64,000 nucleotides of DNA from Escherichia phage EcWhh-1. The stretch lies in sequence record MH791409.1; one strand, written 5' to 3'. Of the stretch, positions 3,412 to 62,714 are shown one piece after another. Made by a program: the position numbers and the translations under genes. Position 1 is the first letter of the stretch. Each line of letters opens with the position of its first letter. The notes below the pieces were generated by a model, which searched no databases, was not told the origin of the DNA, and saw only the letters and a program-made list of their open reading frames with translations.

Positions 3412-4392
3412 TTATTTCAGAAGTGTAACTTCAGCGATTTCGTTCCAGTCATTTTTATCAGTGGCAATGAAGTCCGCCAGATAAAGAGCTGTACGTAATG
3501 ATACGTTACGAAGACGAGATACATTAGCCTTCATCCATGCTAAAGCTTGATAAGTCTCAGCATCAGTCAGACCTCGATTTTGCATCATATCAGTGGACAG
3601 GATAACGTCTTCAACACGAACCATAATCTCTTCGTTCGAGTGAACTCCGAGGTCTAAGTAAACTGAACGAGATACTAAAGCCTGGAGGTGTGGAGCAAGT
3701 TTAGTTCCACGCTCTAATTCACGGTCAATATCAACGTTGGTGATGAACACGATGGTGCCTTCGTATTCGAATTCTTTATCGATATTTTTATCATCGAGGT
3801 AAGAACTTGAAGTGCTCCAGCACACTTTACGTTTTTCACCAGTATCCAATGCTGCTTTTAACAGGTTCAGGATATCCATATCAGAGAATACATCAACATC
3901 ATCGATAAGAAGAACACTATTAGGGCCGCGGTTATTCCAAAGCTGCTCGTAAAGACCGATTCCACTAATCTTTCCGTTGATTGATTTATATTCGATAGTT
4001 TCATTTTCGTGGGCATTTTGTAATGCTTTATCCAAAGAATACGTTTTACCAATACCTGCGGCACCAGAGATGATAAGGGAACGAATTTTACCATCGATGA
4101 TTCCGTTGGTCATCATGTTCATTACTTTAAAACGTTTGTTGATGCGATGTTTCATTTCTTCAGCGGATTCAGTAATCACTACAGGAGCTTCAGTACCTTC
4201 CATTTCAACGTCACATTTGAACACCCATACACCACGTTCAACACCATCAATCTGTACGAATACCTTGCCATCACCGAGGTGAGCTTCGGATTCATGAATT
4301 TTATTTGGGAACCAGGTTTTACCTGAACTCATGAACGTACCAGAGATTTCATTACCGCGATAGATACCTTTGTTGATTTTGATAGTTAACAT
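3412..4392 (-). CDS. P-loop NTPase (Walker A GAAGIGKT, Walker B LLIDDVD)
   Basis: Walker motifs in translation; table start 4407 is GTG, ATG at 4392 has AAGGAG SD. Confidence 0.65.
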   Translation of the reverse strand: MLTIKINKGIYRGNEISGTFMSSGKTWFPNKIHESEAHLGDGKVFVQIDGVERGVWVFKCDVEMEGTEAPVVITESAEEMKHRINKRFKVMNMMTNGIIDGKIRSLIISGAAGIGKTYSLDKALQNAHENETIEYKSINGKISGIGLYEQLWNNRGPNSVLLIDDVDVFSDMDILNLLKAALDTGEKRKVCWSTSSSYLDDKNIDKEFEYEGTIVFITNVDIDRELERGTKLAPHLQALVSRSVYLDLGVHSNEEIMVRVEDVILSTDMMQNRGLTDAETYQALAWMKANVSRLRNVSLRTALYLADFIATDKNDWNEIAEVTLLK

Positions 4393-4417
4393 TTTATTCT
4401 CCTTCACTCAGTAGATT

Positions 4418-4789: not shown

Positions 4790-4810
4790 AAAAAGGCCCG
4801 AAGGCCTTTT
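4790..4810 (-). terminator. rho-independent terminator hairpin
   Basis: aaaaaGGCCCgaaGGCCtttt stem-loop with flanking A/T runs directly after stop of 4812..5822. Confidence 0.6.
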
Positions 4811-4811
4811 A

Positions 4812-5822
4812 TCATTTATAATACGAGTTATGGTTTTCTAGGTAAACCTGCTCAACGAACTTGTCCCAGAACTTCATATCTACCTTATCAGGCATACCGT
4901 TCTTAGCTGCCCAGATGGCATTGGTTTCGACTTCATCAACTATAGCTTCGAGCTCAGCCTGTACATCTTTAAAAGCATGTAGCCCCTGTTTGATTTCAAG
5001 GATAAATGGTGCTGTTCGTAAAGGATATTGAAGGTCACCGGTCATATAGATTTCCTTCAACTGATATCCAGCACGATAAGCATGGCTCAGAGCTTTCCAG
5101 TCAATACCTTCATTAGCTTCAGCCTTACGAGCACGTTCGCCATATTCTGCATCAAGTTTATTCAGAGATTGCTTAAGCTCGACCAATGACAGAGTAGTTT
5201 GGTACTTACGTCCGAGGACAGTATAGAACGTTTGAGGACCTGTTTTCTCGTGGTTATGAAATACCCATTCACAGAACTCGTTTTCAGGGAGCCGGTGCTT
5301 AATATCTTCTACCTTAGTACGTCGTTGCTTAGTAGAACCATCTTCTTGATAATCAACCCACTGTTCAGGAATCTGGTTAACGATAGCCAGTACACCACGC
5401 AGAGCAGCCAGACGAGAACCCTTAACACCATATTTAGAAGCTTGCTTACGAACGTACCCTAAATAGGCTTTCATGTTGGTTGTATAGAACCGAGAACGAT
5501 TGTCTTGGATAAATTTCCATACATCAGGTAAATCAGATTTAACCACCAGTTCAGGTGGAGTATGAATCATGTCCAGAGCAACTGTTTCGCCATCAGCCGC
5601 TAGTTTAAAGAAATATTTCAGGCTGTAAAGCTCGTGGTCGACATCATCTTTAGTGTTTTTGGAAGCAGTGTTATTCGTGTTCAGGTTGGTATGGTTCATA
5701 GCCGTACCTAACAGAATATCACGCGGATGCGGAACAAAGATTTCTTTAAAATCGACATCAGATTCCGGAGTACTTGTTCCATAAAGGTGGCTACCGAAGT
5801 AGCCTTTCATAACTGTTCTCAT
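4812..5822 (-). CDS. Pol-beta-superfamily nucleotidyltransferase-fold protein
   Basis: N-terminal GSHLYGTSTPESDVDF matches the GS-x(9-13)-DxD minimal NTase signature. Confidence 0.55.
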   Translation of the reverse strand: MRTVMKGYFGSHLYGTSTPESDVDFKEIFVPHPRDILLGTAMNHTNLNTNNTASKNTKDDVDHELYSLKYFFKLAADGETVALDMIHTPPELVVKSDLPDVWKFIQDNRSRFYTTNMKAYLGYVRKQASKYGVKGSRLAALRGVLAIVNQIPEQWVDYQEDGSTKQRRTKVEDIKHRLPENEFCEWVFHNHEKTGPQTFYTVLGRKYQTTLSLVELKQSLNKLDAEYGERARKAEANEGIDWKALSHAYRAGYQLKEIYMTGDLQYPLRTAPFILEIKQGLHAFKDVQAELEAIVDEVETNAIWAAKNGMPDKVDMKFWDKFVEQVYLENHNSYYK

Positions 5823-6271
5823 TCTTTATTCTCGAAGTGGATTACAGGGCAGACCTTAGATTTACGAGCTTTGATATATTGGATGACAACGTTTTCTTTA
5901 GTTTCTCGGCCTTCACGCTCAGCTTGAATACGTTGCCATTCCTTTTCTTCTCTACGGGCATCATACCATGAGTGTAAATTCATCGCACCGAATGCCAAAC
6001 CAATGGATAGCGCAATAATAAGAGATATTGCAACCAACCCTAAAACAAACCCGAGACTCAACAGAACAGGGGTACTTAATACAAAGAAATGCTCTAATAC
6101 ACCAGCACCTGCAACAGTTAATCCAAAAAGCGTACTACCTGCAACAACAGCACAAGCAAAACAAGCCCAAACCATTTTCCAGAAGTAAGCACACAAAGAG
6201 TGTGGTCGAGAATGGCGGTCATAAAAACGGTCGTGTAATTTAACGTGCCAAGAGTTTGTATTGATAATCAT
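5819..6271 (-). CDS. integral membrane protein, 150 aa
   Basis: Several hydrophobic helices; stop overlaps downstream start (ATGA). Confidence 0.55.
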   Translation of the reverse strand: MIINTNSWHVKLHDRFYDRHSRPHSLCAYFWKMVWACFACAVVAGSTLFGLTVAGAGVLEHFFVLSTPVLLSLGFVLGLVAISLIIALSIGLAFGAMNLHSWYDARREEKEWQRIQAEREGRETKENVVIQYIKARKSKVCPVIHFENKE

Positions 6272-8037: not shown

Positions 8038-8080
8038 AGTTGGTAGGTCTATAGTATCATGTTCCTAGAGGATGTAAACA
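8038..8080 (-). promoter_or_regulatory. early promoter element
   Basis: GGTAGGTCTATAGTATCAT plus TGTAAACA. Confidence 0.55.
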
Positions 8081-24452: not shown

Positions 24453-24527
24453 TGGTATCCCGCCCTGGGATCGAACCAGGACCGCAAACTTAGAAGGATC
24501 GTATGCTATCCATTACACCAGCGGGAC
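24453..24527 (-). tRNA. tRNA-Arg (anticodon UCU)
   Basis: Hand-folded cloverleaf: acceptor GTCCCGC/GCGGGAT, T-arm CCTGG-TTCGATC-CCAGG, anticodon loop CTTCTAA, 3' CCA encoded. Confidence 0.75.
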
Positions 24528-25217: not shown

Positions 25218-25294
25218 TGGTGACCCAGACCAGATTTGAACTGGTAACCTTTCCCTTATGAGGGGACTGCTGCTAACCATTGAGCTACAGGGCC
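25218..25294 (-). tRNA. tRNA with CAU anticodon (Met or Ile2)
   Basis: Hand-folded: acceptor GGCCCTG, T-arm ACCAG-TTCAAAT-CTGGT, anticodon loop CTCATAA, CCA encoded; one acceptor mismatch. Confidence 0.65.
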
Positions 25295-61433: not shown

Positions 61434-62714
61434 ATGGCAAAGATTAACGAATTACTGCGCGAGTCAACAACTACTTCTAGCAACTCATTGGGTCGCCCTA
61501 ATCTTGTTGCTTTGACCCGTGCTACAACCAAATTGATTTACCGTGATATTATTGCTGAACAACGTACTAGCCAGCCTATTGCTGCATTGTATGGTGTCAA
61601 ATATCTTACTCCTGATAATGAATTTAGCTTCCAAACTGGTGCCGTTTATGGTGGTGAAGTTGGTTCTAAAGACCGTGAAACTATCCCGGAACTCACAGAT
61701 AAGGCCCAGGCTATTGCCAAGGGCGAATATTTCAAGTATCAGAACATAGTTTATAAGGCTCTTCAAGCAAGCCCACTCGCATCCACTAGCGCTACAGAAT
61801 TGGCTGATGCCCTTCAAGAAGGTTTGGTGTCATTAACATGTCGTCTGGTTCCTGATGCGGCTCACACAGAGAAATTCGAAGCAGGTGATGTTGAAATTAG
61901 TAATGCAGTATTCCAGGTTAATAAATGGAACGCACCTGTTAAGTCTCGTAAACTTAAAACCGCTTTGACTGTAGAACTAGCCCAAGACATGGAATCCAAT
62001 GGCTTCGACGCCCCTGCGTTCTTAGAAGACCTTTTAGCCACTGTAATGGCTGATGAAATCAATAAAGACGTACTACAATCCTTGATTACCGTATCTAAAC
62101 GTTACAAAGTAACTGGTGTATCTGATAATGGTATTATTGATTTGTCCTATAATTCTGCCCCAGAAAGTGCACGTAAATTATATGAAATGGTTTGTGAGAT
62201 GAATTCTGAAATTCAGAAAACCACTTCTTATTCAGGTACGTTTGTTGTCGCATCTAGTCGTGCTGCTGCTATGCTCGCTGGTTCAGGTTGGTTGAAACAT
62301 AAACCAGAAGATGAAGCTTGGCTCCCAGAAACTGCTTACGGTTATTTGATTAATGGATTGCCTGTATTCTGTGATGTTAATAGTCCTTTAGATTATGTTA
62401 TCGTAGGCGTTAAAGAAGATTACGGCGGTAATGAAGTAGTTGGTTCTATTTTCTATGCCCCGTATACCGAAGGTCTGGATTTAGACGACCCAGAACATGT
62501 TGGTGCGTATAAAGTTATTGTAGACCCTGATAGTTTACAACCGGCTATTTCTCTGATGGTTCGTTATGCACTTTCAGCAAACCCATATACCGTTGCTAAA
62601 GATGATAAAGAAGCTCGTGTTATAGACGCAACTAATATGGATTTAATGGCAGGTCAGAGTAACATGTCTTATCTGCTTGGTGTTAAACTTCCTCCTATTA
62701 TTTACGAGGCATAA
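61434..62714 (+). CDS. 24: head vertex protein gp24
   Basis: High similarity to recalled T4 gp24 (MAKINELLRESTTT...). Confidence 0.95.
   Translation: MAKINELLRESTTTSSNSLGRPNLVALTRATTKLIYRDIIAEQRTSQPIAALYGVKYLTPDNEFSFQTGAVYGGEVGSKDRETIPELTDKAQAIAKGEYFKYQNIVYKALQASPLASTSATELADALQEGLVSLTCRLVPDAAHTEKFEAGDVEISNAVFQVNKWNAPVKSRKLKTALTVELAQDMESNGFDAPAFLEDLLATVMADEINKDVLQSLITVSKRYKVTGVSDNGIIDLSYNSAPESARKLYEMVCEMNSEIQKTTSYSGTFVVASSRAAAMLAGSGWLKHKPEDEAWLPETAYGYLINGLPVFCDVNSPLDYVIVGVKEDYGGNEVVGSIFYAPYTEGLDLDDPEHVGAYKVIVDPDSLQPAISLMVRYALSANPYTVAKDDKEARVIDATNMDLMAGQSNMSYLLGVKLPPIIYEA

Follow-up and report, generated by a model that had tools for sequence, protein, structure and literature searches.

The 64,000-nucleotide window analysed here, from Escherichia phage EcWhh-1 (sequence record MH791409.1), carries on its minus strand, at positions 4812 to 5822, an orthologue of the T4 gene nrdC.11. 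The gene encodes a long, T4-type member of the RlaP family of nucleotidyltransferases (NTases), a protein of the Pol-beta NTase fold whose GS / DxD / D catalytic residues are invariant. By analogy with characterized relatives, the best-supported reading of its function, towards which we lean modestly, is the addition of nucleotides in RNA repair. Judged by sequence and profile comparisons, the T4 type is a paralogous long subfamily that resembles canonical RlaP in the N-terminal NTase domain only; the biochemistry of the Pseudomonas enzymes should therefore not be transferred to it without direct tests. The analysis moves the hypothesis for this gene from nucleotide signalling, as proposed in an earlier sequence-only reading of the window, to RNA-end repair. 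NrdC.11, conserved across over 1500 phage genomes, is the obvious candidate for any phage repair of transfer RNAs (tRNAs) short of a nucleotide.

Megablast, with 94-95% DNA identity, assigns the region to a T-even phage of the JS98/JS10 kind, in the genus Dhakavirus of the Tevenvirinae. The gene is called nrdC.11 in the JS10 and JS98 records and "nucleotidyltransferase" in RefSeq. The protein is 99.1% identical to JS98 NrdC.11 and 83.9% identical to T4 NrdC.11 across all 336 residues, and tblastn found NrdC.11-type (T4-type) proteins in 1547 phage records. The statement of the sequence-only reading, which had left out the strand, that the gene has no T4 counterpart is therefore wrong. Its location, upstream of nrdC.10 within the early region nrdC-tk, is the one seen in T4, JS98 and JS10. 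T4 nrdC.11 is flanked by mobD and nrdC.10, whereas a gene for a 150-residue membrane protein occupies the slot of the mobD homing endonuclease both here and in JS10, and an extra 76-residue open reading frame (ORF) separates nrdC.11 from nrdC.10 here. Some database orthologues start at Met5 (position 5810 here), giving 332 residues.

The gene is already known: it has a name, it has been annotated as an NTase since 2006, when COG3541 nucleotidyltransferase matches were reported for nrdC.11 orthologues (Nolan et al. 2006, PMC1524935), and T4 NrdC.11 has been put in the RlaP family, in cluster 5 of a PF10127 sequence similarity network, as "of unknown function" (PMC12776372, 2025 preprint). Orthologues are named "thioredoxin" in many GenBank and UniRef entries, and "HNH homing endonuclease" or "ArsR regulator" in one entry each. 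These odd names look like annotation errors that spread from the names of neighbours, nrdC and mobD. In Acinetobacter phage vB_ApiM_fHyAci03 (L087 3992-5023), the annotation splits the orthologue into two ORFs, the N-terminal one called "nucleotidyltransferase" and the other "hypothetical protein", with nrdC.10 still syntenic nearby; the split could reflect a frameshift, a pseudogene or a sequencing error.

The N-terminal signature noticed in the sequence-only reading, GS followed by a spacer and DxD, is present as reported. The GS-x(8-14)-DxD pattern alone is weak evidence: it arises in 1.9% of shuffles of the protein, and an unrelated 426-residue ORF of the window, starting at 61434 (+), contains it once by chance. 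The case for an NTase rests on homology, which far exceeds chance, and not on the motif. The protein matched Pfam PF10127 (RlaP, "RNA repair pathway DNA polymerase beta family") with 39.8 bits, where the cut-off is 23, and an E value of 5.5e-10 (T4 NrdC.11 scored 44.4 bits), and it matched PHROG 388, "nucleotidyltransferase", over its whole length (E = 6e-133). When a library clustered at 50% identity was searched exhaustively with HMMER, 3090 representatives matched at E<=1e-3, and 780 did so at the stricter E<=1e-30. Conservation was assessed in an alignment of 127 homologues, reaching down to 23% identity, and among 143 diverse representatives obtained by 50% clustering. G10, S11, G15, S21, D22, D24, Q127, G228, K243, H247, R250, P267 and G280 are invariant in the former. 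Among the latter, G10 and S11 are 99-100% conserved, D22 and D24 100%, D60 95% and D62 97%, which favours the NTase reading.

Searches of the PDB by sequence, with the single protein, and with the 127-sequence profile gave no match at E<=10. Structure prediction, one of the checks that had been proposed together with motif conservation, gave an NTase fold in a confident AlphaFold2 model (pLDDT 91.4, pTM 0.75). In the model, GS lies between the strand of residues 2-9 and the helix of residues 11-14, D24 in the strand of residues 23-30, and D62 in the strand of residues 61-67, a placement that, as modelled, is the canonical Pol-beta NTase arrangement. In hhalign, the DVDHE segment containing D62 falls opposite D88, an Asp that is invariant in canonical RlaP. 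Foldseek against the PDB also returned NTases, weakly, with a best E value of 7e-3. The features expected of the Pol-beta superfamily, namely the hG[GS] motif, DxD plus a third carboxylate, and three-dimensional similarity to solved NTases, were thus all found.

Support for a role in RNA repair comes from the genomic surroundings of cellular relatives. We scanned prokaryotic genomes, one for each species, for the C-terminal signature DWKAx[SMA]HAxR, which yielded 168 relatives, and analysed the best 80 (33-51% identity over the full length) by clustering all ORFs within 5 kb of these genes and annotating recurrent clusters with Pfam. Pnkp (PF16542) was a neighbour at 10 loci, usually immediately upstream and on the same strand, followed by RtcB (PF01139) at 7, Hen1 (PF12623) at 5, Ro60 (TROVE/vWA; PF05731 / PF25045) at 4, and an Rnl1-family RNA ligase (PF09511) at 3. 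At least one RNA-repair gene was found within 5 kb at 17 of the 80 loci, mostly adjacent and co-directional, and at 12 of the 50 loci with at least 3 kb of flank on both sides. RNA-repair genes occur about once per genome, so adjacency by chance should be well under 1%, a figure that is estimated and not computed.

In the three most telling loci, the long NTase gene forms a compact, co-directional cluster with a gene for a T4-Pnk-type kinase with a haloacid dehalogenase-type (HAD) phosphatase (PF13671 + PF25109) and a gene for an Rnl1-family ligase: Tundrisphaera sp. TA3 (L065 5963-8993 and L079 6224-8996) and a Bathyarchaeota metagenome-assembled genome (L007 62-3803). These clusters are a cellular counterpart of the T4 tRNA-repair set (PseT and Rnl1) plus a NrdC.11 homologue. 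PseT/Rnl1 of T4 was the first RNA repair pathway described. Relatives of NrdC.11 at these loci cluster with the same kinds of enzymes that counter PrrC in T4, and the phage lineage itself carries pseT and rnlA. However, the classic pathway needs no nucleotide addition, and the part given to NrdC.11 is our proposal.

RlaP was reportedly named by Burroughs and Aravind in 2016, and the name is said to derive from the gene neighbourhood with RNA ligases and other RNA-repair genes. In jumbo phages, a published survey found that the distribution of RlaP mirrors that of RNA ligases (PMC7824862). Carruthers, Fatma and Huang, in a preprint of December 2025, described two RlaPs of Pseudomonas whose genes lie between rtcB and rtcA (PMC12776372). 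At the 3'-OH of RNA, these enzymes attach 1-2 nucleoside monophosphates (NMPs), or dNMPs in their place, with little specificity for the nucleoside triphosphate (NTP), and they use neither DNA nor protein as a substrate (PMC12776372). They favour Mn2+ and the 5' half of a nicked-tRNA mimic, and, with a tRNA-Asp lacking one anticodon-loop nucleotide, RlaP treatment before ligation raised aminoacylation (PMC12776372). RlaP was proposed as an antidote to ribotoxins that excise nucleotides after cleavage, such as RloC and PaOrf2 (PMC12776372).

By analogy, D22, D24 and D62 of NrdC.11 would hold two divalent metal ions, and the enzyme would use NTPs to extend damaged RNA, most likely tRNA halves trimmed by host anticodon nucleases, at its 3'-OH by one or a few NMPs. 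PseT and Rnl1 would then reseal a full-length, functional tRNA. Such an addition would matter against nucleases that excise a nucleotide after cutting, e.g., RloC, and its 3'-OH product would suit a 5'-P/3'-OH ligase such as T4 Rnl1.

Several observations weigh against RNA-repair nucleotide addition by NrdC.11. NMP addition to an RNA 3'-OH has been shown only for the Pseudomonas enzymes of cluster 1a (PMC12776372). No RNA-repair gene was found within 5 kb at 63 of the 80 cellular loci, and none adjoins nrdC.11 in phage nt-1, Ochrobactrum phage OC, Acinetobacter phage fHyAci03 or the jumbo-phage-like contigs L088-L091. In JS10, the closest annotated phage, pseT and rnlA are encoded, but about 87-90 kb away from nrdC.11. 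T4 mutants lacking nrdC.11-mobD.3 are viable in the laboratory (PMC9825161), and any role must therefore be conditional, although conditional dispensability is as expected for a counter-defence function. The similarity to canonical RlaP is also partial: the PF10127 match of the window protein covers only profile positions 25-142 of 249, and only residues 1-130 of the long protein align with canonical short RlaPs in hhalign. Furthermore, about 18 of the 80 cellular loci have a canonical short RlaP gene (252-278 residues) in tandem behind the long one. This pairing argues against redundancy of the two, and it is the main reason why the activity of the Pseudomonas enzymes may not transfer directly.

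The unlinked position of nrdC.11 relative to pseT and rnlA in phage genomes would also suit an RNA 3'-end NTase acting on other ends, either by CCA-like repair of tRNA 3' ends or by tailing host or phage RNAs and so altering their stability. This explanation invokes the same family chemistry; rRNA and full-length tRNAs were also labelled by RlaP in vitro (PMC12776372), and phage tRNA genes are present in the window. Against a CCA-adding enzyme or poly(A) polymerase, we found neither a match to their head-domain families nor structural similarity to them, and we consider action on other RNA ends rather unlikely. AMPylation of a protein, such as a host HEPN-type RNase or a defence or translation factor, as by the minimal NTase (MNT) antitoxins of type VII toxin-antitoxin systems, seems improbable. 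Its sole sequence support is a match to the MntA model NF047752 of NCBIfam, which covers residues 8-25 only and scores 13.1 bits against a cut-off of 60. E. coli proteins were not labelled by canonical RlaP (PMC12776372), and no toxin-like partner gene is conserved beside nrdC.11 in the phages or cells examined.

The sequence-only reading had suggested that the protein could modify nucleotide signals, and a cGAS/DncV-like or other signal-handling NTase might make or perturb nucleotide second messengers against signalling defences. Past the shared NTase core, neither PADLOC nor Pfam nor structural comparison lent support to this idea, and NrdC.11 did not match sequence models or structures of cGAS/DncV-like NTases; we consider such a role very unlikely, and RNA-end repair likelier. 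Likewise, a small-molecule NTase resembling the aminoglycoside/lincosamide NTases or Tam41 is extremely unlikely. Kanamycin nucleotidyltransferase, the MNT of MNT-HEPN pairs and HalB of Hailong show 9-14% identity to NrdC.11 without any sequence-family match, and their substrates differ as well: antibiotics, a HEPN toxin protein and protein-primed oligo-dA, respectively.

By sequence and profile, the T4 type forms a subfamily of its own. With 15 canonical short RlaPs, hhalign gave a probability of 93.6% (E = 2e-7), and both types pass the PF10127 gathering score. In the window protein, T4 NrdC.11 and the cellular relatives alike, the PF10127 match is confined to profile positions ~25-146 of 249, and sequence and profile comparisons found no similarity to canonical RlaP that extends over the full length and takes in the helical C-terminal domain. 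Like the canonical enzymes of, e.g., Pseudomonas fluorescens and P. aeruginosa, the T4 type has an NTase domain with the GS / DxD / D residues, a plan in which the NTase domain comes first and a helical domain makes up the C-terminus, and, in some of its cellular members, an association with RNA-repair operons. Unlike them, it is about 60-80 residues longer, has its own C-terminal signature, DWKAxSHAxR, together with a beta-rich module, and falls into cluster 5 of the network instead of cluster 1a, which holds the Pseudomonas enzymes. The C-terminal ~200 residues, which at the sequence level differ from those of canonical RlaP, probably bind the substrate. The strands of the beta-rich module comprise residues 154-158, 164-168, 184-191, 195-202 and 205-208 in the AlphaFold2 model, and the insertion that it contains (residues 157-168) is, as aligned, particular to T-even-like proteins. 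Canonical short RlaP was found in 78 phage records, mostly of Pseudomonas and Caulobacter jumbo phages, with none from Escherichia phages among them.

In the tandem pairs, the second NTase is a canonical RlaP because it matched PF10127 end to end, with 175-228 bits. The two genes lie on the same strand, usually with a gap of 3-60 nt, and often within Hen1-Pnkp or Ro60-RtcB operons (for example, L067 8001-9802 and L043 8001-9743, as well as L070, L077, L080 and L082). This arrangement suggests a two-NTase module, maybe a heterodimer or a pair of enzymes of different specificities. A possible, more tentative extension of the repair hypothesis is that the long RlaP is a distinct paralogue that works paired with canonical RlaP in cellular repair operons and, alone in T-even phages, serves as a third enzyme of the PseT-Rnl1 pathway that restores nucleotides excised by RloC-type nucleases. 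If true, the paired enzymes would act inside the Pnkp/Hen1 and RtcB/Ro60 repair operons, and the phage long RlaP would be a dedicated counter-counter-defence enzyme.

Within the window, two strong hairpins bracket a unit of about 3.3 kb with eight small co-directional ORFs, of which nrdC.11 is the last (Table 1). The promoter-like site of the T4 early type is the only such site upstream of nrdC.11 on the minus strand back to the preceding hairpin, and neither MotA-box (middle) nor late TATAAATA motifs were found between 8200 and 4700 on that strand. From the promoter-like site and this layout, nrdC.11 is apparently the last gene of an early transcription unit, and the description of it as an early gene in the sequence-only reading is a reasonable one. 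The hairpin that follows nrdC.11 is palindromic and obtains a terminator score on both strands.

Table 1. Features of the nrdC.11 gene, its transcription unit and the second nucleotidyltransferase gene of the window
Feature	Positions	Strand	Basis or remark
nrdC.11 orthologue, long T4-type RlaP-family Pol-beta-fold nucleotidyltransferase	4812..5822	minus	ORF, 336 residues + stop
hG[GS] motif and first two predicted metal-binding aspartates, D22 and D24 (residues 10-25, GSHLYGTSTPESDVDF)	5748..5795	minus	conservation and model
Predicted third catalytic carboxylate D62, with D60 alongside (residues 60-64, DVDHE), at the start of a beta-strand	5631..5645	minus	conservation, model, hhalign
Variable beta-rich module between NTase domain and helical bundle (residues ~145-212)	5187..5390	minus	model, low identity
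12-residue insertion (residues 157-168), modelled in a beta-hairpin	5319-5354	minus	gaps in 74% of the 143 representatives
C-terminal helical bundle (residues ~213-336), signature DWKAxSHAxR	4815..5186	minus	K243, H247, R250 invariant
Intrinsic-terminator-like hairpin AAAAGGCCTTCGGGCCTTTT with T-rich tail	4791..4810	minus	starts one base past the nrdC.11 stop
150-residue predicted membrane protein upstream of nrdC.11	5819..6271	minus	stop overlaps nrdC.11 start (ATGA)
T4-early-type promoter-like site: GTTTACA, 16-nt spacer with TG, TACTAT	8051..8078	minus	
Terminator-like hairpin preceding the unit	8117-8092	minus	
nrdC.10 orthologue	3412-4407	minus	
Second NTase-fold protein, 319 residues	17660..18619	minus	ORF

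The upstream membrane protein is not a conserved partner of nrdC.11, as mobD takes its slot in T4. A search for a conserved phage partner found nothing beside the cellular relatives that corresponds to nrdC.10, the 76-residue ORF, the membrane protein or mobD.1. The nrdC.10 orthologue encodes a P-loop nucleoside triphosphatase (ATPase) with weak, sub-threshold Pfam matches of the AAA/STAND type, and the nrdC.10-nrdC.11 synteny is kept from Tevenvirinae to Acinetobacter Twarogvirinae. In Ochrobactrum phage vB_OspM_OC (L086 1-258, 4995-5897), a NrdC.11 homologue with 23% identity lies about 5 kb downstream of a Ro60-related gene, the only hint of a linkage to RNA repair or quality control among the phage genomes examined.

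The second NTase gene of the window, listed as a weaker candidate in the sequence-only reading, turned out to be a real minus-strand ORF encoding an NTase fold. Pfam gave DUF7277 and DUF7275 only, PADLOC returned nothing for either of the two NTases, and a profile comparison between them revealed no relationship past the SDxDF turn. Among 83 homologues of the second protein, D25, D27 and E69 never vary, and G6 and S7 hardly do; together with a confident AlphaFold2 model (pLDDT 92.3, pTM 0.87), this conservation argues for an NTase fold like that of MenT, AbiEii and ANT(2''). We found no literature on this protein, for which no targeted search was made. It is the less-charted of the two NTase genes, and it occurs in 733 phage records.

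T4 has more than two tRNA genes. In the 64-kb window, ARAGORN located only two, for tRNA-Arg(tct) and tRNA-Met(cat), at 24453-24527 (-) and 25218-25294 (-).
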